Assembly (NCBI GenBank): GCA_017442585.1
Contig: JAFRZM010000053.1
Coordinates: forward strand, 27,012 to 91,011
DNA: 64,000 nucleotides
Direction of reading: 5' to 3'
Source of the DNA: Lachnospiraceae bacterium
GTDB lineage: Bacteria; Bacillota; Clostridia; Lachnospirales; Lachnospiraceae
Part shown: one piece after another, positions 3,537-29,776 of the stretch
Layout of the letters: each line of letters starts with the position of its first letter
How positions within the stretch are numbered: position 1 is the first letter of the stretch
Position numbers and translations under genes: made by a program
The notes under the pieces: generated by a model
Seen by the model: the letters and a program-made list of their open reading frames with translations, nothing else
Told to the model about the DNA's origin: nothing
Databases searched by the model: none

Positions 3537-3623
3537 GCTAAAGCGGCTTTGAAGTGAATTCAAGGCCGCATTTTGCGCGATAACGTCGCTTGATTAATGC
3601 GGGAAATAAATATTCTGAAAAAT

Positions 3624-3650
3624 TTAGCACTCGCCTCTTGACAGTGCTAA
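3624..3650. promoter_or_regulatory. CIRCE element (HrcA operator)
   Basis: TTAGCACTC-gcctcttga-CAGTGCTAA: one mismatch to the consensus TTAGCACTC-N9-GAGTGCTAA, upstream of clpB. Confidence 0.9.
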
Positions 3651-3666
3651 CAAAACGATATATAAC
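3638..3666 (+). promoter_or_regulatory. Sigma-A promoter of clpB
   Basis: TTGACA (3638-3643), 17 bp, TATAAC (3661-3666); the -35 lies inside the CIRCE. Confidence 0.85.
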
Positions 3667-3726
3667 TATTATGGAAACTGAAAAAGTGGCATGCGCCACA
3701 GTAGTGAAAGTGAAGAGGGTGAGTTT

Positions 3727-14042: not shown

Positions 14043-15482
14043 ATGGCAAGAGATAAGAAAATGGTAGAATCGATCACATCTATGGATGTCGATTTTGCGC
14101 AGTGGTACACAGACGTTGTAAAGAATGCTGAATTAACGGATTATACAAGCGTTAAGGGTTGTATGGTAATTAAGCCTTACGGTTACGCAATCTGGGAGAA
14201 CATCCAGCATGAACTTGATAAGAGATTTAAAGAAACAGGCGTAGAAAATGTTTACATGCCGATGTTTATACCTGAGTCACTTCTTCAGAAGGAAAAAGAT
14301 CACGTTGAAGGATTCGCTCCTGAAGTTGCGTGGGTTACACATGGTGGGCTTGAACCGTTGCAGGAGCGTCTTTGCGTACGCCCTACATCAGAGACTTTAT
14401 TCTGTGATTTTTATAAAGATGCAATTCAGTCATACAGAGACCTCCCAAAGGTTTATAACCAGTGGTGCTCAGTTGTAAGATGGGAGAAGACAACACGTCC
14501 TTTCCTTCGTTCAAGAGAGTTCTTATGGCAGGAAGGCCATACGGCACATGCAACAGCAGAGGATGCTGAAGCAAGAACAGTTCAGATGCTTAATGTATAT
14601 GCTGACTTTGTTGAAGAGTTTTTGGCAATCCCGGTAATCAAGGGTAGAAAGACAGATAAAGAAAAGTTTGCCGGAGCAGAGGCAACTTATACTATAGAAG
14701 CTATGATGCATGACGGTAAGGCATTGCAGTCAGGTACAAGCCATAACTTCGGTGACGGCTTCGCTAAGGCATTCGGTATCCAGTTTACAGATAAGGACAA
14801 TCAGCTCCACTATGTAAACCAGACATCTTGGGGATTATCAACAAGACTTATCGGTGCAATCATCATGGTTCATGGTGATGATGAAGGTCTGGTTCTCCCG
14901 CCTTACGTTGCTCCGACACAGGTTATGGTTATTCCGATAAGACAGGATAGCGAAGGCGTTCTTGATAAGGCTAATGGAATTAAGGATGCGTTAAAGGCAG
15001 CAGGTCTTCGCGTGAAGATTGATGATTCCGAGAAGAGTCCCGGATGGAAGTTCTCCGATCAGGAAATGCGCGGTATTCCGGTACGTATCGAAATCGGGCC
15101 GAAGGATATCGAGAACGGTACATGTATCGTTGCTCGCCGTGATACACACGAGAAGCAGACTGTTGCGATCGATGAATTGGTAAATGTAATTCCTGGACTT
15201 TTGGATGCAATCCAGCATGATATGTTTGAGCGTGCAAAAGCACACAGAGATTCAAGCATGTATGAAGCTACGGATTACGAAGAGTTCAAGAAGACTATAG
15301 ATGAGAAGCCTGGATTCGTACGCGCTATGTGGTGCGGCGATGAGGCTTGCGAAATCAAGATTAAAGAAGATACGACAGCAACAAGCCGTTGCATGCCGTT
15401 TGATGCAAAGAATATCTCCGATAAGTGCGTATGCTGCGGTAAACCGGCTAAGCACTTGGTAATCTGGGGTAAGGCATATTAA
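14043..15482 (+). CDS. proS: Proline--tRNA ligase (archaeal/eukaryote-like short type)
   Basis: [27 protein letters not shown], cysteine-rich C-terminus ending GKAY; no INS editing domain. Confidence 0.97.
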
Positions 15483-15500
15483 AATAATGATTTTTAAAAG

Positions 15501-15535
15501 AGCAGGATTGGAAAATCAATCCTGCTTTTGTTTTT
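15501..15535 (+). terminator. Rho-independent terminator after proS
   Basis: AGCAGGATTG/CAATCCTGCT 10-bp stem followed by a T-rich tract. Confidence 0.88.
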
Positions 15536-15663
15536 CAATTAGTCTCGGTGGATGAAATGATTCCCGTGACACTCGGAAGTAACGAAGCCGTTTACTTTGG
15601 GTAATTGGGTGTGATATCATAAAAATGATGACGTGATAAATTGGGAGGTGTGGAGAATATAAA

Positions 15664-16041
15664 ATGGGATTCTGGATTTTTATGATGATAATGGAATTAC
15701 TTATTCCGATTATTATGGTTGCATTTGGAAAAGTTTTTATGAAAAGACCGCCGAGCACAATTAATTTTGCTTATGGTTATCGGACTAAACGTTCGATGAA
15801 GAATATGGATACGTGGATTTTTGCACATAAGTATTTTGGTAAGATATGGTATATCAGCGGTTTGGTATTACTCCCCGTCTCGGTAATTCCAATGATTCTT
15901 GTAGTGGGGAAAGAACCTGGGATTGTCGGTAGTGTTGGAGGAATCGTTAATTTCGTGCAGTTGATTTTGCTTATTGGAGCGATAATTCCAACAGAGTATG
16001 CTTTATCAAAAAGGTTTGATTGTGAGGGTAATGCTCGATAA
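15664..16041 (+). CDS. SdpI/YhfL-family membrane (immunity-like) protein
   Basis: Hydrophobic 125 aa with IN..YGYRT..SM....W motif. Confidence 0.8.
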   Translation: MGFWIFMMIMELLIPIIMVAFGKVFMKRPPSTINFAYGYRTKRSMKNMDTWIFAHKYFGKIWYISGLVLLPVSVIPMILVVGKEPGIVGSVGGIVNFVQLILLIGAIIPTEYALSKRFDCEGNAR

Positions 16042-16090
16042 TTTTGAGTTTGTGAAGACGGGCGCTTTTGCCTGGGAAGGTTGTTTAAAT

Positions 16091-16579
16091 ATGGAATTAG
16101 TTAGGGTAAGCAGAGAAAATGTGGATGCGATAGCGCCTCTAGTGGCATTATTTAGAATGCAGTTAAAGTTATATAAAGGGATTAAATCTGAGCCGGATAA
16201 TGAAGCAGGAAAGGAAGAGTTGCTTGAGTTTCTGGATTCGGATTTTCCGGTTTATGCCGTAAAAGATAATGGCGTTTTTGCTGGATACATAGTATGTAGG
16301 ATTGATGAGCCATGTTTGTGGGTTGAGCATATTTTTGTAAAGGAAGAGTATCGAAGAAGAGGTGTCGCGACGTTGCTTTTTAATAAGGCGGAAGAAATTG
16401 CGGCTTCTATGGGAGAAGATACCGTATATAATTTTGTTCATCCGAATAATGAAAATATGATTCAATTCCTTCGCACAAAGGGTTATACCGTTTTGAATAT
16501 GCTGGAAATTAGAAAACCTTACGAGGGCGAAAAACTGATGACGACCATTCGCGTTGAGAATGAGATTTTTGATTATTAA
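16091..16579 (+). CDS. GNAT acetyltransferase
   Basis: IFVKEEYRRRGVA acetyl-CoA loop; start placed at ATG 16091 after GGAAGG. Confidence 0.85.
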   Translation: MELVRVSRENVDAIAPLVALFRMQLKLYKGIKSEPDNEAGKEELLEFLDSDFPVYAVKDNGVFAGYIVCRIDEPCLWVEHIFVKEEYRRRGVATLLFNKAEEIAASMGEDTVYNFVHPNNENMIQFLRTKGYTVLNMLEIRKPYEGEKLMTTIRVENEIFDY

Positions 16580-16818
16580 CGTTGGAACATAGTGAGTTTA
16601 TGGTCGAGAAGTGTGGACAGGAAAAAGTTCAGAGAAATGCAGAGTTTAGACTATTTTCCCGAGGTCGGGAAATTGGTAGAGCGTGTTGAAATGAACGCAA
16701 GAATCGCCATATGCATATATGGCGGGGAAAAACGACACATTGAACAGCACTTTGCACAGCACATTGAATAAGAAAATACTATTTTTTATAAGAGATATAA
16801 CTATATAGGGAGACAGTA

Positions 16819-17403
16819 TTGATGGAACTTGCTTTGGATGAGATTATTCTTCGTGATTATCGACTTTCTGATGTAGAAGATGAAGTCCGGTGGACAAATG
16901 TAGACACTGCGTGGTTTTGTACGACTACCCCTTGGATGGAAATGACGCCGGTGGATCCACAAGAGCTACGTGCAGATATGGCAGAAGTTATTTCTGAAAT
17001 GACGGAAGATAAGATACGGATGCGCTTTGAAATAGAGGTGGTGGGGCGTCATATAGGAACAATGTCATCTTATTATCTGAGCGAAGACTTTGAGTCAATG
17101 CCATATGAAAAGATTGATTACAGTAAGAACGCGGAAGAAAATCACGCAGTTCGTGCGCTTGGAATCGAGATATGCGAGATGGATTATTGGGGAAAAGGAC
17201 TTGGCGCAAAGGCATTGACCTGTGTTATGGATTATTATCGTGATTTCGGTGAGCATCGCTTTATCCTAGAAACGTGGACAGGGAATACACGGATGCTCGG
17301 CTGTGCAAAAAAGTTAGGCTTTAAAGAAGTGCTGCGCAGAAAAGATGCATATACGGTCAACGGTAAGCAGTATGATGAGGTTGTGCTTGAAAAAGTGAGC
17401 TAA
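16819..17403 (+). CDS. GNAT acetyltransferase (RimJ/RimL-like)
   Basis: GIEICEMDYWGKGLG, ETWTGNTRM, KKLGF motifs. Confidence 0.85.
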   Translation: MMELALDEIILRDYRLSDVEDEVRWTNVDTAWFCTTTPWMEMTPVDPQELRADMAEVISEMTEDKIRMRFEIEVVGRHIGTMSSYYLSEDFESMPYEKIDYSKNAEENHAVRALGIEICEMDYWGKGLGAKALTCVMDYYRDFGEHRFILETWTGNTRMLGCAKKLGFKEVLRRKDAYTVNGKQYDEVVLEKVS

Positions 17404-17445
17404 TAAGTTTGTAAATGTGATTGTGTTAACTGAGGAATATTAAAT

Positions 17446-17979
17446 ATGGAAAACATGAAATTTATAGAACCCACATTTGAATATGCGGAGCAGGTGCGCG
17501 CATATAGACAGGAACTCTTGGATGCAGGCAGTTCCATGGATGGCACGGGAGCACTTAGGCGTATGGAAGACCCTAAAGAGTGGATTGAGTACTGCATTAA
17601 GGGTAAGAAAAAGGATACACAGCCGGAAGGAAGAGTTCCTGCAACGCAGTATATTTTCGTTCGCGAAAGCGACAATAAAATAGTCGGAATGCTTCAGATA
17701 AGGCATTACCTTAACGAGTTTTTGGAAAAGTATGCCGGCCATATAGGATATTCCGTTGCGCCGAGCGAACGCCGTAAAGGTTATGCCACAAAAATGCTCG
17801 AGATCGGCTTAACGAAATGTAAAGACCTGGGGATTCATAAAGTACTTATATCCTGCATCGACGATAACGTAGGTAGTAGAAGGACAATCCTTAAGAATGG
17901 CGGAGTATATGAATCCACAGTTTACGAACCCGGCGAAGGCGTAAACTTAGAAAGATATTGGATAGATTTACAAGATTGA
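17446..17979 (+). CDS. GNAT acetyltransferase
   Basis: GHIGYSVAPSERRKGYA, NVGSRRTILKNGG, ERYWI. Confidence 0.88.
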   Translation: MENMKFIEPTFEYAEQVRAYRQELLDAGSSMDGTGALRRMEDPKEWIEYCIKGKKKDTQPEGRVPATQYIFVRESDNKIVGMLQIRHYLNEFLEKYAGHIGYSVAPSERRKGYATKMLEIGLTKCKDLGIHKVLISCIDDNVGSRRTILKNGGVYESTVYEPGEGVNLERYWIDLQD

Positions 17980-18046
17980 GTTAAGAGAATCACCTTGTTC
18001 GTGCTTGCAGTGAGTAATATAGCAATTGTATAAAGGGGGTATCGAA

Positions 18047-18718
18047 ATGGATATTGATAAGATTAGAGCGGAAGTAGCAGAAAAATTCGTAAATGAGTTC
18101 ACGTGTGAGAAAATTAAGGAAGACGAGTATTCTTCGTTTTCATATCCGAAGTTAATAAAGATGATGAAATTTGATACGATAAGGCATAAAGTAGAAGGCT
18201 TCGGTCATATTATGAGCATGCGTACCAAAGGCCCTTTCGGGATGAGACTCCTTACAATGTCGTTTATGCCGTATGAAGGCGGAAACGTGCCGTATCTTCT
18301 TATCGATATGATGACAGTAGGCAAGAAGATAACCGTATTCGTAGAGTATTACGACTGTACGGAGGAAAAAGCCCCTAAAGATGAACTTTTAAGAATTAAA
18401 GAAAGATACGATCATCTTACGGAATACGATGAAAAGCCAAAGTGGTACGTACCGATGCGCACACCGTATTCCTTGATAAAGTGTGGCGTAAAAGAAGAAG
18501 GGAAGAGCTTTTGCGATATGATATGTGATTCCGTCGATGCATACATAAAAGAGATAAAAGCGTCGGGATTAAGCGATACTAACATCCCGGGCCTTTCAGC
18601 ATTTAGAGACAGAATGATAAACGAAGGCAATCCGTCTTCAAGCATATTGGAAAAAGTCTTCGGCAAAGAAGGTGCAGAGAAGTTTTTCAAAGAGTGCGTA
18701 ATGCCGCTTAAGAAATAG
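18047..18718 (+). CDS. Hypothetical protein resembling the ferredoxin-dependent bilin reductase / red chlorophyll catabolite reductase fold
   Basis: By-eye match to PcyA/PebA-type motifs: FMP....VPYLLIDMM, W....TPYSLI, C-terminal NPSSSILEKVFGKEGAEKFFKECVMP; ATG 18047 after GGGGG SD. Confidence 0.6.
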   Translation: MDIDKIRAEVAEKFVNEFTCEKIKEDEYSSFSYPKLIKMMKFDTIRHKVEGFGHIMSMRTKGPFGMRLLTMSFMPYEGGNVPYLLIDMMTVGKKITVFVEYYDCTEEKAPKDELLRIKERYDHLTEYDEKPKWYVPMRTPYSLIKCGVKEEGKSFCDMICDSVDAYIKEIKASGLSDTNIPGLSAFRDRMINEGNPSSSILEKVFGKEGAEKFFKECVMPLKK

Positions 18719-18828
18719 AACATAAGAACATAAGGGTAACTGTATGAATTAATGGACTGACCTTGAGTTAGGCTTAGGATGTAGCGTGATTAAGGCTATT
18801 TGATTATTTTGAATCGGAGGTGGCTTTT

Positions 18829-19095
18829 ATGATGTTAGATCCAAGGTCTTATGTCGATGAGTTCAGGAAGGCGTCATTTGAGAAATTAGTAAAGGAACGC
18901 GAGAGACTTTACAAGGAAATTAAGGCTATTGAGAGTGTGGCATTCGAAAAGGAACGTACGAGCAATGCGTGGCTTGTCTGCCCCGGCCCTGATGTAAAGT
19001 ACCAGGTGTATTTGCAGTATTTGGCAGCACTAAGCGAGTTCATGGCTGAGAAGTATAGACAGGAAAAAGTTTGGGGAGAAGGTGAGTTGAAATGA
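18829..19095 (+). CDS. Small hypothetical protein, translationally coupled to the downstream hydrolase
   Basis: GGAGG SD before ATG 18829; stop overlaps the next ATG (ATGA). Confidence 0.75.
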   Translation: MMLDPRSYVDEFRKASFEKLVKERERLYKEIKAIESVAFEKERTSNAWLVCPGPDVKYQVYLQYLAALSEFMAEKYRQEKVWGEGELK

Positions 19096-19877
19096 TTGGA
19101 GCTATTCTTGGCGATATGGTTGGTAGCCCATATGAATTTGATAGGGGTGCGAAGGTAAAAGATTTTGGCCCATTATTTATAAAAGAATCAACGTACACAG
19201 ATGATTCCGTAATGACAATTGCAGTTGCCGAAGCATTGATGAATGTGAGTCGTGGCGCAGATGATGAAACAATTAAAAACGAAGTTATCAAATCAATGAG
19301 AGCTTGGGGAAGAAAATATCCCAATGCAGGTTATGGCGGAAAGTTCCGCCAATGGCTTTCGCGGGAAGGCTATGGCCCATACGGTAGCTGGGGCAACGGA
19401 TCGGCTATGAGAGTTTCTGCTGTAGGCTGGTTATATGATTCGTTGGAGCGCACGCGCGAAGTCGCAAGATTTACCGCGGAAGTAACGCATAATCATCCGG
19501 AAGGAATTAAGGGAGCAGAAGCTACAGCATCTGCAATATATATGGCACGTACCGGTAAGTCAAAGAAAGAGATTAAGGATTATATCGTTTCGGAATTTGG
19601 TTATAATCTTTCAAGAACCTTAGACGAAATCCGCCCGAACTATCATCATGTCGAAAGCTGTCAGGAAACAGTCCCCGAAGCAATTACAGCATTCTTAGAG
19701 GGCAATGATTTTGAAGACGTCGTAAGAAACGCAGTATCACTCGGTGGCGACTGCGATACGCTTACCTGCATCGCAGCTTCGATAGCGGAAGGCTTCTATG
19801 GCGTACCGGAGGAGTACCGGAAGGAAGTTTTAAATAGACTTGAAGATGATATGATTGCGGTATTGAAGAAGCTGTGA
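19092..19877 (+). CDS. ADP-ribosylglycohydrolase (DraG/ARH family)
   Basis: GAILGD, YTDDSVM, GNGSAMR, THNHP, GGDCDT metal-binding motifs. Confidence 0.93.
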   Translation: MIGAILGDMVGSPYEFDRGAKVKDFGPLFIKESTYTDDSVMTIAVAEALMNVSRGADDETIKNEVIKSMRAWGRKYPNAGYGGKFRQWLSREGYGPYGSWGNGSAMRVSAVGWLYDSLERTREVARFTAEVTHNHPEGIKGAEATASAIYMARTGKSKKEIKDYIVSEFGYNLSRTLDEIRPNYHHVESCQETVPEAITAFLEGNDFEDVVRNAVSLGGDCDTLTCIAASIAEGFYGVPEEYRKEVLNRLEDDMIAVLKKL

Positions 19878-20014
19878 GGGACGGCCGAAATGTCTGCAGA
19901 GAAAAAATGCGGATAGCCGCAAATTTTTAATGAAAAGATTGCTTTAAAAATTGGATATAACTTGTTTACAGGGTTGCGGTATGTGGGCGTTTGGTAAAAA
20001 ATGAGCGGGAGTTA

Positions 20015-20101
20015 TGTCATTAATAACATATTTTGATGCAATATGTTATTAATGACAATTTTGTTTGAATTTACGGGATAATATGTTATACTTAACATAT
20101 T
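20015..20101. promoter_or_regulatory. Operator array and promoter of the XRE-ATPase-TOPRIM operon
   Basis: Perfect 18-bp inverted repeat (20015-20032/20040-20057) and a 9-bp inverted repeat (20080-20088/20093-20101) share the half-site AATATGTTA; extended -10 TGtTATACT at 20084-20092. Confidence 0.75.
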
Positions 20102-20114
20102 GGAGGCGATAAAT

Positions 20115-20432
20115 ATGAGTGCTAATAAGATTGATAAAATATTTGAGCAGATAGATAAATTAAATAAACCTAATTCAGAGCAAGAAGCTTTACCGGCCGC
20201 TAAAACAAATGGTATATCGCGTAGTGTTCTAAACGAGATTTCGTCGGAAATACAAAGAATATTGGATGAAAACGGTTTTACGCAAGAGGATTTGTGTAGA
20301 ATAACGGGTATGTCACAATCTAATATAAGTAAGATACTTAACGGCAAAGTGGCGCCAAGGATAGATACATTACAAAAGATAGCGGAATCAACACATACAA
20401 AATTAGTGATAAGTTTTGAAAGTAATGATTAA
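20115..20432 (+). CDS. XRE-family HTH transcriptional regulator
   Basis: FTQEDLCRITGMSQSNISKILNG..PRIDTLQKIA; GGAGG SD before ATG 20115. Confidence 0.92.
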   Translation: MSANKIDKIFEQIDKLNKPNSEQEALPAAKTNGISRSVLNEISSEIQRILDENGFTQEDLCRITGMSQSNISKILNGKVAPRIDTLQKIAESTHTKLVISFESND

Positions 20433-20443
20433 GGGGATTAAAT

Positions 20444-21568
20444 ATGGCACATATTAATTCAATAGAAATAAAAAGTTACAGAGGAATAAAAGCATTATCA
20501 GTTTCAGATTTTTCAAATATTAATATAGTTGTGGGAGACAACAATAGTGGAAAAACCTCTTTTCTAGAGGCCATTCAATTATTGTTTGCCGGTACTCAAC
20601 TGGGAACTTTGAAAAATATTATAAATCAACGAACTGTACTTAATCCTGACAAGAGTAGTTTTTATGTTTCGCTCACAAAAATGTTCAACAAGGAGCAAAG
20701 ACCGGATTCGATGGACTTTGAGATTTCTGCAGAAAGTAATAGTGGAATCCTACAGTTTCGTTTTATGGGGCGAGAAGGCAGTGTTTCGGGTGAAGAAGCA
20801 CTTCAAATGTCTGCTTTATCTCAGCGAGAAAAAATGCAGTATAAAAGGAATTCGATTATATTGCCGGAAAAGGCAAAAGTATTTATAGGGAATGTAGTCG
20901 CACAAACTGGAGAAGAAATTTCACAGCAGGAAGTAAGAAGTACATCTTTAGATAGTGGGCTTCCGGGGGCTTCTTTAAAGAAGGAAATTCTGTATATTTC
21001 GGCATTTGGACATCTTAGATATGATCTTTTACAGAATATTGTAGGTAATCCGGAATATAAAAAGCTGGCAGTTGATATTCTTGGACAATTTGAAACAGAA
21101 ATAGAGGATATATGTTATACCAAGGCAGATGATGGCTCTTATTTAGAAACGATTGTAGCTACGAGTGGGATAAATATGCCGCTTTCGGTATATGGCGATG
21201 GTATTAAGAAGATTTTGTATATACTTAATAAGCTTTTTGATTCCGCAGATTCAATACTGCTGATTGATGAAATTGAGACGGGGCTCCATAAGAAATATTA
21301 TGATATGTTGTTCCCTGTAATATTTGCTTTAGCTAGTAAGTTGAATGTTCAATTGTTTATTGCAACACATAGTATTGAGGCGATAGATGCTATACTTAAA
21401 TACGGAGATTACGACAATAAGAAAGAAGAGAAGGATCCGATTAAAGTCATTACATTAAAGAAAATTGAATCAAAAACCGGTAAAGGAAGCAACATAGTTG
21501 CTAGAAACGTTACAGGTAATTATGTATACGAAAATAGAAAAGTGTTTGAATATGAGGTGCGTCTATGA
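20444..21568 (+). CDS. ABC/SMC-like ATPase (AAA_15/AAA_21 type)
   Basis: Walker A GDNNSGKTS, signature LSVYGDG, Walker B ILLIDEIETGLH, H-loop IATHS. Confidence 0.9.
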   Translation: MAHINSIEIKSYRGIKALSVSDFSNINIVVGDNNSGKTSFLEAIQLLFAGTQLGTLKNIINQRTVLNPDKSSFYVSLTKMFNKEQRPDSMDFEISAESNSGILQFRFMGREGSVSGEEALQMSALSQREKMQYKRNSIILPEKAKVFIGNVVAQTGEEISQQEVRSTSLDSGLPGASLKKEILYISAFGHLRYDLLQNIVGNPEYKKLAVDILGQFETEIEDICYTKADDGSYLETIVATSGINMPLSVYGDGIKKILYILNKLFDSADSILLIDEIETGLHKKYYDMLFPVIFALASKLNVQLFIATHSIEAIDAILKYGDYDNKKEEKDPIKVITLKKIESKTGKGSNIVARNVTGNYVYENRKVFEYEVRL

Positions 21569-22302
21569 TTGAATTAGTACTTGTAGAAGGCGTATCAGAT
21601 GTTCAGCTGATAAGTTACTATATGCAGAGCGTATATGAGTGGAAGCATGTTAATGAAAATATACTTGGAATAACGGTATTGGATGCGCATGAACATATAG
21701 AAAATTTAACAAAAGGTGATAATGAACTTGTGTTATGCGGTGTTGGAGGAAATAGTAAATTTGCGTCGTTTGTGGAAAAACACCGTATAAATGCAATGAT
21801 TATTGAAAAAGAAATAGCATCATTTATGGTTGTGACGGATAGAGATAAAGAAAGCAATCTAAAGATGACAAGAAGAATTAATGCAGTATTTGAAAATATA
21901 ACATTCGAAGCAGGAAAATGGGTGAAAAATAAGATAGCGGATGGCTATGGCCAGGATAAGTTGGTTAATACTTACTTGCTAATTATCCCAGAAAATGAAA
22001 ATGGTGCATTGGAAAGTGTAATCATTAATGCATTGAAGGATATACCGGAAGAAAAAGAACTTATGCAAGAGGTAATTGACTTTATAGATAATGTAAAGAA
22101 TGATTTGGTTCCGGAATTATGTAAAATTAATAAATATAATAAGGCTGTTGTTGGAACGTTTTTCAGCGTTAGAAATCCGGAAAATGCAATGCGTTCTTTT
22201 GGAGCTTTCGTATCAAAGGTAGAGTGGTTAAAGTCGGAGTCACTTAAACAGATTTTTATGCCGCTCGGCTGTTTGGGTAAGGAAAAAACGATTAATAATT
22301 AA
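21565..22302 (+). CDS. TOPRIM-like (DUF3226/DUF4435-like) putative nuclease
   Basis: N-terminal LVEGVSD, DxD motif VVTDRD, later IIP...GALE; ATGA-coupled to the ATPase. Confidence 0.7.
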   Translation: MIELVLVEGVSDVQLISYYMQSVYEWKHVNENILGITVLDAHEHIENLTKGDNELVLCGVGGNSKFASFVEKHRINAMIIEKEIASFMVVTDRDKESNLKMTRRINAVFENITFEAGKWVKNKIADGYGQDKLVNTYLLIIPENENGALESVIINALKDIPEEKELMQEVIDFIDNVKNDLVPELCKINKYNKAVVGTFFSVRNPENAMRSFGAFVSKVEWLKSESLKQIFMPLGCLGKEKTINN

Positions 22303-22441
22303 ATTTAAGGAAGGATTGCGCTTACTTAGTCGATAGTGCGACGGTTTTTCTCTGGCCGACTTGTTTTGAGAAGTTTTGATCGAAGGATTCTTCTAGAGAT
22401 TAAATGAAAAACTAAACGCAAGGTAAGGGCTTTTGTTCTTA

Positions 22442-22518
22442 AATCGGTAGTGGTTTTTATGATGCTAGATATGAGGTTTATGTTAATGAGTTTATGAAGG
22501 CGTCGCTCGAGAAGTTTA
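22442..22518 (+). pseudogene. Degenerate copy of the RBS and 5' end of the 18829..19095 gene
   Basis: Hand alignment with 18812-18888 gives about 60 of 77 identical positions with one gap. Confidence 0.7.
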
Positions 22519-22578
22519 CAGGATATTTAAGAAGATACGGGGATAAAAACTATATTATTAAGTCTAGGAGAATTTAAA

Positions 22579-23742
22579 ATGCTTGAAAACGAAGTTGTCA
22601 AGACAAATAATAGTGTTGCAAATATGACGGAAGAGTTTTTAATGGATGTCAGAAAGGAGCTAATCCCGACGGAAAGAGCTATAAGCCTTCCGTTTGCAGA
22701 GATTGGATCACTTGGCACTGCAATGGCAGCATTTGCTCCGGCAGTAGAAGTGTTATCAAAAATAAATGATGGAAAACTTTATAGAATAACTAATGCCAAG
22801 AAGGGATTCGAACTGGCAAAAGCTAAAGGAGGAGGAAACTGGCCTTCGCTTAGAAAGGGTAATGAGAAAATTCTTGCAAAGCTTGAAGAGGCAGATATTT
22901 CTGATGCGGCATCTTGTATAGATCCGGCAATGATTATGATAGCAGTGGCTTTGTATGATATAAATAAAAATCTCGATGAGATTAAGAGCACGACTAAGCA
23001 AATCTTGTCATTTTTGCAAATTGAGAAAGAGTCTCAGATTGAGGCTGATGTGATTACTCTTGATGACATCGTTAGTAAGTATAAGGATAATTGGAATAAT
23101 GAACTTTGGATGTCAAGCAATCATCAATTAGTGTGCGATATTAAGCGTGAAGCTCGAAAGAATATATTATCATATCAACGTGAAACTGAAGAGTTGATGA
23201 AAGATAAGAAAATTCTAGTATTGCAAGGTCATACAAATTCAATACTTAATGATTTGCTTAATAAATATAGATATTATCGACTTTCACTTTACATTTTTTC
23301 GCTAGCATCAATGTCAGAGATTATGCTTGAAGGTAGATTTACGGAAGAAAGTATTGAAGCGGCTATTAGTGAAATAAGAAAGTACTCTAATGAGTATAGA
23401 GAACTCTTTGGTAAAAGTTCGGAATTTTTGGAGGAAAGGTCGGGAGAAGCTTTGGAAGCTTATGCATATAAAGGTGTTGGAATAGCTGCAAATGCCATGG
23501 GTAAGCTTGTTCAGAAGATTCCGAATATGAATGGCGAGAAAATTGGTGACTCGCTTCAGGAAAAAGGAAAGCAGATTCAGAAGTTTGCTGAAGACGGAAA
23601 CAGGAAGATTGTCGAGGCTTTCGCAGAAGCGGGAGACCCTAAAACAAGAGTACTTTTGAATGAAATGGAAAACTTAATGCAGATATATAATGGGACAACA
23701 GAAATATGTATGGACAATAAAGGGTTTTATTTGATAGCATAA
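22579..23742 (+). CDS. Conserved-looking hypothetical protein (helical, 387 aa)
   Basis: Long ORF with SD AGGAG; hydrophobic segments (IDPAMIMIAVAL) followed by a heptad-rich region. Confidence 0.8.
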   Translation: MLENEVVKTNNSVANMTEEFLMDVRKELIPTERAISLPFAEIGSLGTAMAAFAPAVEVLSKINDGKLYRITNAKKGFELAKAKGGGNWPSLRKGNEKILAKLEEADISDAASCIDPAMIMIAVALYDINKNLDEIKSTTKQILSFLQIEKESQIEADVITLDDIVSKYKDNWNNELWMSSNHQLVCDIKREARKNILSYQRETEELMKDKKILVLQGHTNSILNDLLNKYRYYRLSLYIFSLASMSEIMLEGRFTEESIEAAISEIRKYSNEYRELFGKSSEFLEERSGEALEAYAYKGVGIAANAMGKLVQKIPNMNGEKIGDSLQEKGKQIQKFAEDGNRKIVEAFAEAGDPKTRVLLNEMENLMQIYNGTTEICMDNKGFYLIA

Positions 23743-23785
23743 AGGTAGAATTCGAGATTAAGCGTTATTAGGAGGGAATGTTAAA

Positions 23786-24016
23786 ATGAATGAAAAATTG
23801 GATGCGCTAGTTTTAGTAAAAAACGCGGTGACGAATTGGGTTCAAATAACAACGCATGGTTCTAGATATACATGCGAGACCAAAATGCTTGATGGAGTAG
23901 AATGCTTTAAATTTAAAAACAGATGGCATAGTGTAAATGATTATGTGGGACCAAATACTGAGGAACTGATTGAAGAAAATGGCAAGCTAATATCAAGATT
24001 GTTTAAAAAGAAATAG
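23786..24016 (+). CDS. Hypothetical protein
   Basis: 76-aa ORF with AGGAGG SD; no recognisable motif. Confidence 0.7.
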   Translation: MNEKLDALVLVKNAVTNWVQITTHGSRYTCETKMLDGVECFKFKNRWHSVNDYVGPNTEELIEENGKLISRLFKKK

Positions 24017-24168
24017 TATATGCTGGTATCACTATTACTTGCAATTTCTATGTTTATTATGCGTACTGACTCCATTTTTGAAGGAGTAAAGGGAATTACA
24101 GGTAGTATAATGGTTTTTACTAAAGTAAAAGGGAAAAGTTAGTTATACGGAATACGGAGAATGTTATT

Positions 24169-24687
24169 ATGCCAAAGGTATCCACAAAAGAAAACAAAAA
24201 TGCATATTTTTTACGACGTGAGGAACTGAAGCTTACCCGTGATCAGGCGAGCGAGCTCTTGGAATCAATTCCACCGGAGCGTATTGAAAAGATTGAAAAT
24301 GAACGTTTGGAGCCGCATCCGGAAGAAGTATTAATTATGGCGGATAAGTATAAGGCACCGGAACTATGTAACTATTATTGTTCGACGCAGTGCCCGATTG
24401 GCTTACAGTATGTGCCGGAAGTCAAAATACATGACTTATCTCAGATTATATTAAAGATGGTTGATTCTTTAAACTGTGTGCAGGAAAAGAAAAATAGGCT
24501 TATTAATATAACTGCTGATGGAGTGGTAAGTGATGATGAGATTGATGACTTCGTAGATATACAGGATGAACTTGAGAAGATTTCTATTTCTGTAGAGGCA
24601 TTACAGTTATGGTCGGAGCAGATGCTTGCGGATGGTGTAATTAATCAAGAGAAGTATGAGGATAGACGCAAAGAAAAGAATATGTAA
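24169..24687 (+). CDS. XRE-type HTH regulator with C-terminal helical domain
   Basis: REELKLTRDQASE...ERIEKIENE, LCNYYC..CPIG, ITADGVVSDDE. Confidence 0.8.
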   Translation: MPKVSTKENKNAYFLRREELKLTRDQASELLESIPPERIEKIENERLEPHPEEVLIMADKYKAPELCNYYCSTQCPIGLQYVPEVKIHDLSQIILKMVDSLNCVQEKKNRLINITADGVVSDDEIDDFVDIQDELEKISISVEALQLWSEQMLADGVINQEKYEDRRKEKNM

Positions 24688-24993
24688 GGTGTGGTATACG
24701 AGCGCTTTTTCACTATTTAGGAAGAGCACTTTTTTATTTTGCTAAAATCGGAGAGATAACAAAGGATAGTTGCTGATGTAATCATGTTGTTTATGAATGA
24801 AAGGGATTATTATTAAAGCATAAAGAACAAGGAATACATTATAAAACGAATCCGAAAACGAATAGAACAAAAATCCACGAAGTGTGGACACAGAAGAGGG
24901 AATTCAAATATATAATGTAGACAAGTTCTAAGAGAAGGAGGTTAAACTTAGCAACAGTTGTTTTAAGAAAACTATTTAATGGAGGAACAGACT

Positions 24994-25212
24994 ATGAAGT
25001 ATCAGGTAAAATTAATATTTGCAGATGGTGAAGAAATAATTGACGATACGCTTTGTGATACTTATGATGAGGCAGTTGATTACTCGGATTATTTAGTAAG
25101 CTGCTACCAAACAGGTGCAGAAACACTTAACATGAGCAATATGGGCGATTATGAGTATGACGAAGATAATTTTGAACTCCCGGATTGTGAAATAATCGAG
25201 GTCGACGAATAA
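24994..25212 (+). CDS. Small acidic hypothetical protein
   Basis: GGAGG SD before ATG 24994; D/E-rich. Confidence 0.7.
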   Translation: MKYQVKLIFADGEEIIDDTLCDTYDEAVDYSDYLVSCYQTGAETLNMSNMGDYEYDEDNFELPDCEIIEVDE

Positions 25213-25276
25213 GGGATTGAATGGCGGCACCTAAAAACGGTGCAGCCGAAGAAACTTTCATTAAGGAGGAATAAAA

Positions 25277-25675
25277 ATGGCAAAAGATTGGATTTATGCA
25301 AATTTTGCAAAGGTAGCAAGTGCCAATGGCGGACCGGTTAACTATTTAAATTCAATAGCAAGAAATAATTTCAAGGCGGGTTTTAATAGTGGACATCTAA
25401 GAGGAGCAGCAGAGTTGCTTTTGTTTGAGGGAGCCTGTTATGGATGTTATAGAGCGGGTAGGTATTTCTTTGAAAATAGAAAGAGCAAAAATAAAGAAGT
25501 TCAGATGATAGAGCCAATTAAGCTATTCGAGATTATTAAAAACGATTGTTATAATGAAAGAGGCGAGAATGATGAGAGTAAAAAACAGAATCGCAACAAT
25601 CCGGTTTATCGAAAAAGCAAAGACACATCCTCAGTTTGTGAAGAGGGAATTAAAGATAAAGACGGAATCTGTTAA
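25277..25675 (+). CDS. Hypothetical protein
   Basis: AAGGAGG SD; no recognisable motif. Confidence 0.6.
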   Translation: MAKDWIYANFAKVASANGGPVNYLNSIARNNFKAGFNSGHLRGAAELLLFEGACYGCYRAGRYFFENRKSKNKEVQMIEPIKLFEIIKNDCYNERGENDESKKQNRNNPVYRKSKDTSSVCEEGIKDKDGIC

Positions 25676-25695
25676 GCGTAGATAATATACAAATA

Positions 25696-25735
25696 AGGTG
25701 CCTTTCGCATAGGTATAGGCGAAAGGCATCTTTTT
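25696..25735 (+). terminator. Rho-independent terminator
   Basis: AGGTGCCTTTCGC/GCGAAAGGCATCT stem (one G-T) followed by Ts. Confidence 0.8.
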
Positions 25736-25873
25736 ATTCTAGGGGGATGAGCGAATTAGAGTTTAATAATTTCCTGAAAGTATTAGGTAAATAAAATGGT
25801 TTTGAAAGAGAAGACTGTTAGGAGGTGCCTGCGGTCTTTGCATTCGAATAAAGGGATAGTTGATGTAGGTATA

Positions 25874-26056
25874 AATCGGCGGGGAAGAAAAGTTTAACGA
25901 AGTGACCATAGCGAAGTGAGCGTCGTGGCGCAGTGCGATGCGCGGCAACCAAGCCCACTGTTTGAGCGAAGCGAGTTTGGGCGACTTGCCGCAATTGGCG
26001 AGCGCGAGCCACAGAGAACGAGCGTGTCACGAGTAAACTTTTCTTTCCTGCCGATT
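25874..26056. repeat. ~183-bp rod-like palindromic element (element 1)
   Basis: Imperfect terminal arms AATCGGCGGGGAAGAAAAGTTTA/TAAACTTTTCTTTCCTGCCGATT; nested stems GTGAC/GTCAC, GTGGC/GCCAC, GCGGCAA/TTGCCGC, GCCCA/TGGGC; GCGAAGC at 25966-25972. Confidence 0.8.
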
Positions 26057-26179
26057 CTATATTTGTTCCATTTTATAAAAATTTTATAATTCGTTCGAGT
26101 TAAAAGCCCGAAAATAGGCCGATTTTAGAAAAATTTAATTAGGACGTGCTTGTGGTTTTGCAATTGGCAATAAGGACAA

Positions 26180-26264
26180 CAAAAAAGCTAAGTAACCGCC
26201 CGCTCAAAAGTGTGTTACTTAGCTAACCACCGAGGGCAACCGTTTATCGGTAGCACCTTTTGTT
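26180..26264 (-). ncRNA. Candidate ~85-nt small RNA (ends approximate)
   Basis: Bounded by a consensus promoter and an 11-bp stem terminator (AGCTAAGTAAC/GTTACTTAGCT, 26186-26224) followed by Ts on the minus strand; no ORF; internal hairpin ACCGA/TCGGT. Confidence 0.7.
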
Positions 26265-26270
26265 TACTAG

Positions 26271-26299
26271 ATTATAGTGCATATTTCAATAATTGTCAA
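26271..26299 (-). promoter_or_regulatory. Consensus sigma-A promoter of the candidate sRNA
   Basis: Minus strand TTGACA (26299-26294), 17 bp, TATAAT (26276-26271). Confidence 0.85.
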
Positions 26300-26303
26300 T
26301 GAA

Positions 26304-26332
26304 TTGATATTTGTCCCCCTTTATAGTAAAAT
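26304..26332 (+). promoter_or_regulatory. Probable sigma-A promoter of the cca operon
   Basis: TTGATA, 17 bp, TAAAAT; back-to-back with the sRNA promoter. Confidence 0.6.
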
Positions 26333-26392
26333 AGAGAGTGCCATTTTAGGCGTATTTTAAAATAACGATAATGATTTTGTGAGAGAACGCGA

Positions 26393-27613
26393 ATGCACTT
26401 GCCGATAGATGTTAAAAATATCATAGAGCGTCTGGAACAAGCCGGCTACGAAGCATATGCCGTAGGCGGCTGCGTTCGTGACAGCTTGCTTAACGAAGAG
26501 CCCGGAGACTATGATATGACAACATCTGCATTACCATTTGAGGTAAAAGCGCTCTTCAAAAGAACTTTCGATACCGGAATAAAGCACGGCACGGTAACCG
26601 TACTTATGCCGGGAGGCACATATGAAGTTACGACCTACAGAGTAGATGGCGAATATGAAGACATGCGCCACCCTAAAGAAGTGACATTCACGAGAAACTT
26701 AAAAGACGACCTTTCAAGACGCGATTTCACAATAAACGCGATGGCATATAACGAGAAAGACGGCCTTATCGATTTATTTAACGGTAAGGAAGACCTTGAA
26801 AAAAGAGTTATCCGTTGTGTCGGAGATCCGATAAAAAGATTCTCCGAGGACGCGTTAAGAATGCTTCGCGCGGTAAGATTTTCCGCAAAACTTGGATTTT
26901 CAATAGAAAAAGATACACTTAATGCTATAAACGAATTGCACGAGAACTTAAAAGCCGTATCGTCCGAGCGAATCTACGTTGAATTTATAAAGACCGTACT
27001 TAGCGATAATCCGGATAACCTAAAAGTGGCCTACGAAACAGGCCTTTTACCGTTATTCCTCGATGAAGTGTCTCCGCTTTTTAAAGACGAAGAAGCTTTA
27101 AACGAAGCCTTTAGAAGGATGAAACAAGTCGATAAAGACCACATACTTCGCCTTGGAATAATGTTTTCGGAAGCTAATAAAAAGAAAAAGTTCTCACCGA
27201 AGACCGTATTAAAGCGCCTTAAAACAGACAGAGATACTTTTGAAGGCGTAGAAAAACTCGTAAACTTATCCGAGAAAGAACTTCCAACAACTGATTATGA
27301 GGTCAGAAGATATCTTGCGGATAACGGCCTTGATATGACAAAGCGTGTGCTTGCACTTATTTCTTCAATCGGAGAAAAAGAAAGCACCAAGTGCAAAGAA
27401 GTTCTAGAGCGAATAGACACAATACTTAAAAACAACGACTGCATAACCCTTAAAACCCTTGCGGTTACAGGAAACGACGTAATAACTTTAGGCGTTGAAA
27501 AAGGCACAAGAGTAGGAACAGTTTTAGAAGCATTATTTGATAGGGTGTTACAAGACCCTTCATTAAACAATAAAGATACATTAACTTCGATAGTAAAGAA
27601 GGAATTTTTGTAA
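26393..27613 (+). CDS. cca: CCA-adding tRNA nucleotidyltransferase (class II)
   Basis: VGGCVRD..DYD, DLSRRDFTINA, EDALRMLRAVRF, SERIYVEF. Confidence 0.92.
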   Translation: MHLPIDVKNIIERLEQAGYEAYAVGGCVRDSLLNEEPGDYDMTTSALPFEVKALFKRTFDTGIKHGTVTVLMPGGTYEVTTYRVDGEYEDMRHPKEVTFTRNLKDDLSRRDFTINAMAYNEKDGLIDLFNGKEDLEKRVIRCVGDPIKRFSEDALRMLRAVRFSAKLGFSIEKDTLNAINELHENLKAVSSERIYVEFIKTVLSDNPDNLKVAYETGLLPLFLDEVSPLFKDEEALNEAFRRMKQVDKDHILRLGIMFSEANKKKKFSPKTVLKRLKTDRDTFEGVEKLVNLSEKELPTTDYEVRRYLADNGLDMTKRVLALISSIGEKESTKCKEVLERIDTILKNNDCITLKTLAVTGNDVITLGVEKGTRVGTVLEALFDRVLQDPSLNNKDTLTSIVKKEFL

Positions 27614-27614
27614 G

Positions 27615-28649
27615 ATGGAAGATAAGAAGATAAGCGTCATCGTTCCGGTTTACAATGCTGCAAAGTATGTTCAAACCTGCGTTGACTCCATATTAAATCA
27701 GACATATACAAACCTCGAGCTTATCCTTGTGGACGACGGTTCAAAGGACGAATCGCCTGCACTTTTGGATGAGATAAAGAGTAAAGATCCTCGAGTAGTG
27801 GTAATTCATAAAGAAAACGGCGGCGTATCCGCTGCGAGAAACGACGGAATCGTTGCGTCTACAGGCGAGTACATTCATTTCATAGATTCCGACGACTGGC
27901 TTGATAAGACCTGCTATGAAGATATGATATCGCTCATGGTCAAAGAAGACGCAGACGTAGCGTATTTCGGATGGTCAAAGGACAATGTCTATAAGACCGC
28001 ATTCGTTCAGTCCAAGGAAGGCTTTACAGGAGTCGGAGGCCAAAGCGAGATATTAAAATATATGCTTTCACTCGTAGGTGTGGGCGGCGGCTATGTAAGC
28101 TACGGAAACTACGTATGGAATAAGATATATAAGAAAGCATCATTAAAGGATTGTAACGGTAACTTCGTGCTTTTCCCTACTGATGTAAACATTGCGGAAG
28201 ACGGATTATGGCTTGTAGAAGCCGCAAAGAACTTCAAGAAAGGCGTATTCAATAAGACACCTTATTATCATTACTATCAAAACCCTGATTCTGTAATGAA
28301 TACCAAGGAGAAGTATTTCAAGACACGCCTTGGGTCTGAGAGCGCTCACGTTAAAATGGTTAAAATCGTGGAAGCTTACAACAAGGAAATGGCCGACCTT
28401 CATAAAGAAGTGTGCAATAGCTTTTTCCTGTCTCATATTGACGGTGCGCCTGAGAAGGCCCCTGAGTTTATAGAGGCTGTATTTAATAATCTTATAGAAT
28501 TGAATGACGGAAAATGCCCGGCATCACTTGCAAAAAAATATGCGGCACTCCTTAACAACGTGCCGAAGGATGCGGGATTACTTAATAGAAAGTTAGTCAG
28601 AATGGCTGTTAAAGTCACGAAGAAAATCGATAAAAAGAGAAAAGGGTGA
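27615..28649 (+). CDS. Glycosyltransferase family 2
   Basis: ISVIVPVYNA, VDDGSKD, NGGVSAARN, FIDSDD. Confidence 0.95.
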   Translation: MEDKKISVIVPVYNAAKYVQTCVDSILNQTYTNLELILVDDGSKDESPALLDEIKSKDPRVVVIHKENGGVSAARNDGIVASTGEYIHFIDSDDWLDKTCYEDMISLMVKEDADVAYFGWSKDNVYKTAFVQSKEGFTGVGGQSEILKYMLSLVGVGGGYVSYGNYVWNKIYKKASLKDCNGNFVLFPTDVNIAEDGLWLVEAAKNFKKGVFNKTPYYHYYQNPDSVMNTKEKYFKTRLGSESAHVKMVKIVEAYNKEMADLHKEVCNSFFLSHIDGAPEKAPEFIEAVFNNLIELNDGKCPASLAKKYAALLNNVPKDAGLLNRKLVRMAVKVTKKIDKKRKG

Positions 28650-28653
28650 AATA

Positions 28654-29766
28654 ATGTCGGATAATCGTAAGACGATCGGAATCTTAACATTCCATCGTGC
28701 GATAAATTACGGTGCGCTTCTCCAGGCGTACGGCCTTCAGGAAGCGTTAAAAGGCTTAGGACAAAACGCAAAAGTAATAGACTACAGATGTCCTTTCGTT
28801 GAAAAAGCATATCGCTTAACATGGGGCCTTAATAAGAAGAAACTTAAAAGTTACATCGTAACCTTCAAAGGAATGAGCAAGGTAAAAGAGAAAAACCAAA
28901 TGTTTAGGGCTTTTGCCTCAAAACACTTAGACCTTTCGAAAGTCTACAACGCAAGCGATGTAAAACAAATCGAGAATGATTTCGACGAGATAATCACAGG
29001 TTCCGATCAGGTTTGGAACATGGATATAAGCGGAAACGACAGGAATTTCTTATTGGAGAGCCTTAAGGATTCGAAAAAGAAAAATTCCTACGCCGTATCA
29101 CTCGGAACATATAAATTAAGCGAGAAAGACGTAAACGACATAAAGGGCTTTGAAAGAATCTCACTTCGTGAGCCTGCAAGTGCGGCATACGTAAAGAGCC
29201 TCACGGGTCGTGATGATGTGCATGTTGATATCGATCCGACACTTTTGCTCAATCAGGAAAAATGGGAAGAGCTCGTAGGAAAAGAAGGCCCGGTGAAGGG
29301 TGACTACATTTTTATCTACTCTGTTCATCCGCAAAACCACATGATTGAGTATGCGAAAAAGCTTGCAAAAGAAAAGAACATGAAGGTCATCTACCTTCAT
29401 AACCGCATTAAGATGGATCTTAAGTTTAAGGATGTTACAATGCTTACGCACGTGACACCAGAAGACTTTTTGACACTTATACATAATGCTTCGTATGTTA
29501 TTACGAATTCGTTCCACGGAACGGTATTCTCGATAATCTTTAGAAAGCAGTTTTTGTCGGAGCTTACGACAAAGGGCGGATTCAATAACAGAGTTTACGA
29601 CCTTTTGACGGAGCTTGGAATAAGCCGCAGAATCTTGGAGCCTGTACGTAATGTAAACGACGGACTTACGATAGACGAGTCGATAGACTTCGACAGTGCA
29701 AATGAAAGATTAGAAGAATTGCGAAAGAAATCGTTGAAGTACCTTGAAACTATAATAGAAAAGTAG
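28654..29766 (+). CDS. Polysaccharide pyruvyl transferase family protein
   Basis: NYGALLQAYGL, GSDQVW, SLRE, DPTLLL, TNSFHGTVFS. Confidence 0.9.
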   Translation: MSDNRKTIGILTFHRAINYGALLQAYGLQEALKGLGQNAKVIDYRCPFVEKAYRLTWGLNKKKLKSYIVTFKGMSKVKEKNQMFRAFASKHLDLSKVYNASDVKQIENDFDEIITGSDQVWNMDISGNDRNFLLESLKDSKKKNSYAVSLGTYKLSEKDVNDIKGFERISLREPASAAYVKSLTGRDDVHVDIDPTLLLNQEKWEELVGKEGPVKGDYIFIYSVHPQNHMIEYAKKLAKEKNMKVIYLHNRIKMDLKFKDVTMLTHVTPEDFLTLIHNASYVITNSFHGTVFSIIFRKQFLSELTTKGGFNNRVYDLLTELGISRRILEPVRNVNDGLTIDESIDFDSANERLEELRKKSLKYLETIIEK

Positions 29767-29776
29767 GAGGAAGGAA

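Follow-up and report, generated by a model that had tools for sequence, protein, structure and literature searches.

An XRE-associated cassette of the defence candidate family PDC-M38 in a Lachnospiraceae genome: a Rad50/SMC-type ATPase, a DUF3226 protein and a putative three-operator promoter

Introduction

The subject of this study is a cassette of three genes located at positions 20115-22302 of a stretch of DNA of 64,000 nucleotides (nt), referred to as the window, from a Lachnospiraceae bacterium (GenBank assembly GCA_017442585.1, contig JAFRZM010000053.1, positions 27,012 to 91,011 of the forward strand). The genes encode a regulator of the XRE type (XRE), an ATP-binding cassette (ABC) ATPase, designated A, and a protein of the Pfam family DUF3226, designated B. 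A first-pass annotation had described an ABC ATPase paired with a TOPRIM-type nuclease and equipped with its own XRE regulator, and had placed the cassette near the anti-phage system PARIS. The comparisons summarized here support the first description; the placement gives way to an assignment to PDC-M38, a family of phage defence candidates (PDC) represented in the PADLOC database, for which a function in immunity appears probable. The 145 PDC, which are listed as untested by their authors, were predicted by an approach of guilt by embedding, from cassettes lying within loci of BREX, DISARM and type I restriction-modification (RM), and CAS_00138 and CAS_00155 were assigned to PDC-M38 in supplementary file 8 of that work (Payne, Hughes, Fineran, Jackson; bioRxiv 10.1101/2024.01.29.577857).

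Gene organisation of the locus

In the list of open reading frames (ORFs), the three genes lie on the same strand, and they are preceded by a candidate promoter and operator region:

20013-20102, + strand: promoter/operator region, the promoter being a consensus match only
20115-20432, + strand: XRE/Cro-C1-type helix-turn-helix (HTH) regulator of 105 amino acids (aa), the presumed autorepressor of the operon
20444-21568, + strand: PDC-M38A, soluble Rad50/SMC-type ABC ATPase (A), 374 aa
21565-22302, + strand: PDC-M38B, DUF3226 protein (B), 245 aa, the presumed nuclease effector

For the regulator gene, the ATG at 20115 is favoured as start codon over an alternative TTG at 20100 because a GGAGG motif is located 8 nt 5' of it. 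Both junctions were read directly: the TAA stop codon of the XRE gene is followed by 11 nt holding the motif AGGGGA and then by the ATG of the ATPase gene, and the stop codon of the latter overlaps the start codon of B in the sequence ATGA. The three coupled genes with an 11-bp gap and an ATGA overlap are thus as the first-pass annotation had read them, and the same is true of the AT-rich DNA it had remarked upon, the GC content being 0.339 and 0.334 over 20001-22000, at most 0.365 onward to 25000, and about 0.40-0.44 in the flanks. It had also seen no transporter partner of the ATPase, and indeed no membrane or transporter gene adjoins the trio. A role of A in an ABC transporter is ruled out by this lack of a membrane partner.

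A contig of 193 nt from a sheep-gut metatranscriptome covers 20578-20770 within the ATPase gene with two mismatches and a depth of about 2.9, which is weak evidence that the operon may be transcribed in vivo, carry-over of DNA being a possible source of the contig. Nothing real was returned by scans for Rfam families and tRNA genes over 19000-27000 and 15000-30000, and therefore neither an RNA component nor a tRNA attachment site is assigned to the cassette.

Assignment to the PDC-M38 family

A comparison with models of defence systems had been proposed in the first-pass annotation, and in PADLOC both proteins are assigned to PDC-M38. A matches PDC-M38A (PDLC04608) with an E-value of 4e-120, residues 1-373 being aligned with positions 1-366 of the 367 positions of the model, and B matches PDC-M38B (PDLC04622) with an E-value of 5.6e-125 (residues 1-243, positions 2-244 of 246). 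The next named PADLOC matches of A are AbiLi (PDLC02336), with 2.8e-41 over residues 4-344, and partial matches to AriA with 2.4e-25 and 9.7e-22. For B, PADLOC gave no match to AriB, AbiLii, Old or HEC-01B (for AbiLii none at E<=0.01), and Pfam gave no match to DUF4435, the family of AriB, which is also absent from the 25 families listed for 79 members of the B family. In a profile comparison with five DUF4435 sequences by hhalign, the B family reached a probability of 0.5%, a value of low power, as the control comparison of OLD with DUF4435 itself reached only 9%. The genome from which the window derives contains no DUF4435 protein.

By these profile matches, the cassette is a member of PDC-M38 and of neither PARIS, AbiL nor OLD, despite a similar list of parts. 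The earlier PARIS-like label is therefore not retained: B lacks a DUF4435 or AriB match, and A fits AbiLi better than AriA and both far less well than PDC-M38A. The copy in the window adds to a catalogued candidate family and is not a new kind of system; what is added here is the conserved three-operator XRE circuit and an explicit TOPRIM alignment.

A and B are encoded by two separate ORFs in the window and in all 35 pairs examined. Among the named systems, membership in PARIS is ruled out by the family tests of A and B, Gabija by the missing helicase and by an ATPase and a TOPRIM protein that are not fused, and Septu by the missing HNH partner; AbiL proper and a fused OLD nuclease are ruled out by the absence of an AbiLii/RloB-type partner and by the separate ORFs.

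The ATPase A

In Pfam, A matches AAA_15 and AAA_21, and its N-terminus matches RecF (3.4e-11) and Rad50. The complete set of ATPase motifs named in the first-pass annotation is found again, and in an alignment of 31 homologues with identities down to 24% it is conserved almost throughout: the Walker A motif G31-x-N-N-x-G36-K37-T38 is invariant, as are Y250-G-D-G253 at the position of the ABC signature, D275 of Walker B, H309 of the H-loop, and E371-x-R373 in the C-terminal tail, and E276 of Walker B is conserved in at least 90%. The corresponding codons are 20552-20554 for K37, 21266-21271 for D275/E276, and 21368-21370 for H309.

The AlphaFold 2 model of A has a mean predicted local distance difference test score (pLDDT) of 87.1. 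Its best matches in the Protein Data Bank (PDB) as found by Foldseek are PtuA (from Septu and from retron I-A), Rad50, heads of SMC proteins, GajA (8x5i) and the OLD protein of Thermus (6p74), with E-values of 1e-12 to 1e-10; AriA does not occur among the 50 matches listed. Because of these structural matches, A is regarded as a soluble Rad50/SMC-type ABC ATPase. The most variable part comprises residues 81-180 or thereabouts, which form a beta-rich insert in the model and show identities of 0.51-0.60 among close homologues, compared with 0.85-0.90 for the core.

The DUF3226 protein B

B matches the Pfam family DUF3226 (PF11536) with an E-value of 9.8e-18 and 65.1 bits against a cut-off of 27, in agreement with the DUF3226-like branch suggested previously. 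The EGxSD and DRD motifs that had been pointed out are present as V-E8-G9-V-S-D12 and T91-D92-R93-D94, so that the former numbering 'E7/D89' was a few residues off. In an alignment of 79 family members with identities down to 21%, D92, D94, P142, G147, E150 and K193 occur throughout, and at least 90% conservation is seen at E8, G9, D12, G61 and G62. E8 is encoded by 21586-21588, D92 by 21838-21840, D94 by 21844-21846, and E150 by 22012-22014.

When the 79 members were scanned singly, the Pfam model OLD-like_TOPRIM (PF20469) touched 73 of them (best E-value 1.6e-7) and the model Toprim 14 (best 8.7e-5); RloB touched five, weakly (best 0.0016), and not the B protein of the window. Residues 4-162 of B align weakly with the nuclease part of the reverse transcriptase-endonuclease of retron Ec67 in NCBIfam (E 0.0067). 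As a reference set for hhalign, 23 OLD-like TOPRIM domains were taken from genomes of the same order, and against these the B family reached a probability of 95.2% and an E-value of 2.8e-8, in a register which places E8 on the TOPRIM glutamate, G61-G62 on the GG motif, and D92xD94 on the DxD motif. Compared with the OLD-like TOPRIM domains, B has an insertion some 25 residues long, seen as a beta-hairpin (residues 44-59) in the structural model.

This AlphaFold 2 model has a pLDDT of 94.8 and a predicted template modelling (TM) score of 0.90. B is composed of an N-terminal OLD-type TOPRIM domain (about residues 1-160) and a helical C-terminal domain (161-240), which holds K193, and the order of elements in the former, i.e. 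beta1 with E8, helix, beta, helix, beta with DxD, helix, beta, is the one which the TOPRIM fold requires. The structural search for a TOPRIM fold, which had been set beforehand as a test, had a mixed outcome: Foldseek gave 2p62_A as the single significant PDB entry (E 1.4e-8, TM score 0.61), followed by generic Rossmann-like or GTPase folds, and it was the profile methods that supplied the homology to the OLD type. Sequence searches of the PDB with phmmer and with a profile found 2p62 alone (profile E 1.3e-8), and a Foldseek search of viral structures (BFVD) gave nothing useful. From the profiles and motifs we conclude that B is an OLD-type TOPRIM protein with an additional helical C-terminal domain.

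The XRE regulator and its putative operators

The HTH domain of XRE is located at residues 46-92, following an N-terminal extension of about 40 aa, and matches the Pfam family HTH_3 (7.7e-14). In PADLOC, XRE weakly matches capH (3.8e-6) and an RM 'control protein', and it weakly resembles the antitoxins HipB, Y4mF and MqsA. In each of 28 other complete loci, the gene directly upstream of A encodes a regulator with 60-72% identity.

The candidate promoter consists of a -35 hexamer TTGAAT (20065-20070), a spacer of 16 nt, and an extended -10 element TGtTATACT with its hexamer at 20087-20092. Three palindromes of the form ATGTYA-N4-TRACAT are found in this region, namely O1 (20014-20029), O2 (20043-20058, with one mismatch) and O3 (20083-20098), the last of which lies across the -10 element; O1 and O2 together form a perfect inverted repeat of 18 nt (20015-20032 / 20040-20057). 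In the 150 nt upstream of XRE, at least two such boxes are present in 28 of the 29 other loci and at least three in 21 of them, with clusters near -35, -75 and -110. Elsewhere in the same loci, nine matches were counted in 447,847 nt, which corresponds to an enrichment of about 1000-fold upstream of XRE. Because the boxes are conserved and enriched at this position, they argue strongly that XRE would autoregulate its own operon via these putative operators. In a distant XRE-bearing locus (L049, G017:C23), the region upstream of the XRE gene at 7154 contains three tandem boxes of a sequence other than ATGTYA-N4-TRACAT, namely AAATATATAAAAnTATATATAT. The architecture is thus alike and the box sequence different, which suggests that regulator and operator may co-evolve.

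Distribution and comparative anatomy of the cassette

An alignment-seeded scan of species-representative genomes yielded 34 loci, almost all of them from Lachnospiraceae of gut or rumen. A further 28 complete loci keep the order and spacing of XRE, A and B at 60-79% protein identity, and for this reason the arrangement is far beyond chance; none of the genes flanking the trio in the window recurs in these loci. In each of seven more distant A-B pairs (24-36% identity), the two genes adjoin or overlap; an XRE gene is located upstream in two of these pairs (L049 and L054) and missing in the other five. Since most of the distant pairs lack XRE, A and B are the core of the system and XRE is an accessory of one large clade.

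Of the family's 201 genera, 11 yielded a match to the B model; PDC-M38/DUF3226 pairs occur widely in Firmicutes of gut and rumen, and archaea have them too. Among 30 relatives, 12 of them of the same genus, no DNA match to 20100-26300 was obtained, a tblastn search of phage and plasmid collections with B gave no match, and PHROGs contains no family for B. In a contig assigned to the planctomycetes (L022, Thermoguttaceae bacterium), a trio with 61-68% identity to that of the window is accompanied by a Tn916-type integrase, which points either to a transfer from one phylum to another or to mis-binning of the contig.

Several copies are decayed. Two loci, L034 (10001-10183) and L031 (10001-10300), keep only the C-terminal part of B and have lost the TOPRIM domain; in the former, A and XRE are intact beside the truncated B, and a second, distant and intact A-B pair is present at 767-2605. 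L029 (10001-10734) has a frameshift in B and L032 (7031-8291) a fragmented A.

Genomic context

That relatives of the cassette occur near defence genes had been an expectation of the first-pass annotation, and a tally of the ORFs located up to 6 kb from the trio (253 after de-duplication), with E<=1e-10 as the limit for a strong PADLOC match, is in line with it as far as a tally made without a matched control can be. Among the strong matches are JetA, JetB and JetC of Wadjet, restriction enzymes of types IV and I, PbeA, DpdF, a DRT reverse transcriptase, PycC and PycTM of Pycsar, SoFic, DdmD, and the candidates PDC-S01, PDC-S04 and PDC-S07. In the Butyrivibrio loci L003, L004 and L005, a complete type III Wadjet operon jetD-A-B-C (342, 515, 235 and 1459 aa) ends directly before XRE, and in L005 and L013 B is followed by a type IV restriction enzyme of the PLD-helicase-DUF3427 type and a NUDIX protein (PDC-S07). 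Tn916-type integrases are located near the trio in five loci.

Some neighbours are related to tRNA. A peptidyl-tRNA hydrolase (PTH2) and a Thg1-like tRNA 5'-repair enzyme are encoded beside the trio in three Butyrivibrio loci (L001 at 3527-4915, L002 and L004), and a protein with a tRNA_bind domain is encoded between the Tn916-type integrase and XRE in L022 (7197-7661) and L023. These genes may be there by chance, or they may hint at tRNA as a target.

In the genome of the window, the trio sits in a low-GC island of a sheep-gut Lachnospiraceae, downstream of a gene for an ADP-ribosylglycohydrolase (19092-19877). In a metagenome contig of a related strain (L085) with 78-80% nucleotide identity, the ADP-ribosylglycohydrolase gene is directly followed by a homologue of the gene for a 387-aa protein that lies beyond the trio in the window, and the trio is missing; the intergenic DNA is too diverged for exact insertion borders. 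Cargo beyond this homologue comprises a CapR-like gene and AbiGi. Another sheep-gut strain agrees with the window to a point past the end of B; from about 22308 onward the sequences differ, and this point is taken as the right-hand end of the cassette. Because the flanking genes are adjacent in L085 without the trio and the other strain diverges at about 22308, the stretch downstream of the ADP-ribosylglycohydrolase gene (19092-19877 to 26393) is, by these comparisons, a variable defence hot spot, and the trio is an insertion of 2.3-2.7 kb in it. An empty site was not found among 30 species-level relatives, in which synteny is not conserved, and no integrase or tRNA gene marks the hot spot. 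A location of the trio in horizontally acquired DNA is supported.

Two further features follow the cassette:

22342-22358, + strand: weak terminator-like hairpin, 40 nt past the stop codon of B, from a consensus scan only
22579-25675, + strand: neighbouring low-GC cargo, encoding the 387-aa protein, a 76-aa protein, a 172-aa HTH protein, and proteins of 77 and 132 aa

None of the cargo genes co-occurs with the trio in other genomes, and they are therefore not regarded as part of the system. The 387-aa protein (22579-23742, + strand) has no match in Pfam, PADLOC or PHROGs. It has 117 homologues, those in L083/L084 (5001-6197) and L085 (2064-3227) among them; a homologue with 85% identity precedes a CapR-like gene and AbiGi, and a more distant one in Pseudobutyrivibrio is located between an Mrr-like restriction endonuclease with SMODS/SLATT genes and an AAA_15 ATPase with a reverse transcriptase. 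The protein may thus be an uncatalogued defence gene product. The 172-aa HTH protein (24169-24687, + strand) matches the phage regulator family phrog_6499 (4e-40), and a relative, G017:C52, shows a DNA match of 66%; its gene may be a phage or satellite remnant in the island. At the end of the island, short non-coding elements (25905-26032 and 26234-26303) recur in the same genome and in relatives, with a copy of 89% identity at G000:C18:1567-1694 and others on contigs C18, C40 and C55.

Proposed function and alternative explanations

We consider it reasonably probable that the cassette is an anti-phage or anti-mobile-DNA immune module in which an ATPase sensor and a TOPRIM nuclease effector are kept under auto-repression. 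This reading is based on the match to PDC-M38, the intact motifs, the OLD-type TOPRIM homology, the conserved trio, the defence neighbours, the patchy spread and the low GC content, and the persistence of the pairing and coupling of A and B down to 24% identity is counted in its favour. According to the mechanism that we propose, XRE would bind the three palindromes, one of them across the -10 element, and repress its own operon, by which a potentially toxic nuclease would be kept at a low and buffered level, in the way in which restriction enzymes are controlled by C-proteins or CBASS by CapH. A, probably via its beta-rich insert (about residues 81-180), would recognise a phage product or an abnormal state of nucleic acids, and ATP binding or hydrolysis by A would then license or release B. 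Using E8, D92, D94 and E150, B would catalyze metal-dependent cleavage of DNA or RNA, and this cleavage would halt the replication of the phage, perhaps at the expense of the cell.

Several points weigh against this reading. We infer the binding of the boxes by XRE, the nuclease activity of B and the trigger alike. Among the 50 PDB matches listed by Foldseek for the model of B, there is no entry for OLD, GajA, AriB or DnaG/primase, and because no TOPRIM structure was retrieved, the predicted TOPRIM character of B rests on profile comparison and motif logic. The evidence from defence neighbours consists of counts for which a matched genomic control is lacking, and several loci, e.g. L039, have purely housekeeping flanks. 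The decayed copies (L029, L031, L032 and L034) fit a costly or dispensable gene and are no proof of defence. A text search of the literature returned no paper mentioning PDC-M38 or DUF3226 and no experimentally validated member of PDC-M38, and the related HEC-01, which also consists of an ATPase and a TOPRIM protein, gave no protection in the assays of Payne et al. (bioRxiv 10.1101/2024.01.29.577857).

The alternative that survives best, which we nevertheless regard as unlikely, is a toxin-antitoxin (TA) or addiction module, in which B is a toxic nuclease neutralised by A and/or XRE, so that loss of the cassette kills the cell and carrier islands or integrative elements are stabilised. The label of Pfam AAA_21 ('putative AbiEii toxin, type IV TA'), the weak likeness of XRE to HipB, Y4mF and MqsA, the auto-repressed promoters with several operators that are typical of type II TA systems, and the Tn916-type integrases beside the trio in five loci would fit such a module, and PARIS, too, acts as a TA pair (PMC13064643). 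TA activity and defence are, however, not exclusive, PARIS being both. Moreover, distant A-B pairs occur without XRE, which therefore cannot be the essential antitoxin of the family; L034 has lost the TOPRIM part of B and still keeps A and XRE, i.e. the nuclease was lost without an obvious addiction effect; and the published basis of PDC-M38 is its embedding inside defence operons.

Somewhat less likely still is a module of DNA maintenance or anti-plasmid activity, in which an SMC-type ATPase and a TOPRIM protein, in the manner of RecF/RecR or Wadjet, cut foreign or aberrant DNA structures. RecR and JetD, both TOPRIM proteins, work together with ATPases of this kind, A is matched to RecF and Rad50 by its N-terminus and to Rad50 and SMC heads by its fold, and in three Butyrivibrio loci the trio directly follows jetDABC. 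Yet A has no coiled coil and the cassette no kleisin-like partners, and the patchy distribution, the low GC content and the mobility speak against housekeeping repair, whereas an anti-plasmid function would still be defence in a broad sense and would overlap with the immune module proposed above. A true PARIS system, in which the ATPase scaffold sequesters the TOPRIM protein, detects anti-restriction proteins such as Ocr and releases the nuclease to cleave tRNA-Lys, shares the domain logic of an ABC ATPase with a separate OLD-type TOPRIM protein and could draw on the partial AriA matches of A and on the few loci with Thg1-like, PTH2 and tRNA_bind genes, which are suggestive only, but it is very improbable, since B has no DUF4435/AriB match (hhalign included, with its five sequences), A fits PDC-M38A 95 orders of magnitude better than AriA, with AbiLi also above AriA, AriA is missing among the listed Foldseek matches of A, and the genome is devoid of a DUF4435 protein.

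Within the immune reading that we prefer, a more far-reaching proposal can be formulated, which we put forward as a speculation and regard as unlikely: the XRE-bearing clade of PDC-M38 would be a distinct, always-split class of OLD-type immune nucleases, in which a three-operator switch similar to that of C-proteins delays and caps synthesis of the toxic nuclease after horizontal transfer, the operator co-evolves with the regulator, and the beta-insert of A is an exchangeable trigger sensor. By analogy with AriB, the nuclease could act on tRNA, for which the Thg1-like, PTH2 and tRNA-binding neighbours are a hint only.

The copy in the window is intact, compact (2.3 kb with its own promoter) and has a readable regulatory circuit, which makes it convenient for a first functional test of the family. 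With a positive outcome, the immune systems built from an ABC ATPase plus TOPRIM would gain a fourth branch, split or fused, next to OLD/Gabija, PARIS and AbiL, DUF3226 would obtain a function, and the cassette would illustrate how a toxic effector is held in check by a repressor while genes are transferred.

Comparison with known systems

The arrangement of XRE resembles that of the C-proteins of RM systems and of CapH of CBASS, in which the first gene of the operon encodes a small HTH regulator and palindromic boxes are located in the regulator's own promoter; the cassette has three such boxes, with one over the -10 element, and the sequence similarity is limited to the generic HTH. For B, the founder of DUF3226, PH0156 of Pyrococcus horikoshii (2p62), has the EGKTD and DxD motifs in common with it; this archaeal protein is only 15% identical to B and was deposited as a hypothetical protein without assigned function.

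OLD and GajA share with the cassette an OLD-type TOPRIM domain with the pattern E...GG...DxD, found in B, and an ATPase fold, A matching 8x5i and 6p74. In OLD and GajA, however, ATPase and TOPRIM are fused in one polypeptide of 520-750 aa, whereas they are split in the window, where B in addition contains the beta-hairpin insert of about 25 aa and the extra helical domain, and where a GajB helicase is missing. PARIS likewise consists of an ABC ATPase plus a TOPRIM effector as separate proteins, in a pair that is probably toxic and neutralising; it differs in that AriB belongs to DUF4435 and B to DUF3226, and A is only distantly similar to AriA. AbiL of Lactococcus, which was grouped with PARIS in a 2026 review (PMC13064643), is composed of two genes for a Rad50-like ABC ATPase and then an OLD-type TOPRIM protein, and among the named systems it is AbiLi that A matches best; an XRE gene is absent from AbiL, and B has no match to AbiLii. 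PDC-M38 is defined as a two-gene cassette, to which the clade of the window adds the XRE regulator and the three-operator promoter, a combination that we have not found described; in all other respects compared, i.e. the end-to-end match of both proteins to the models, the gene order and the coupling, the window and PDC-M38 are alike.

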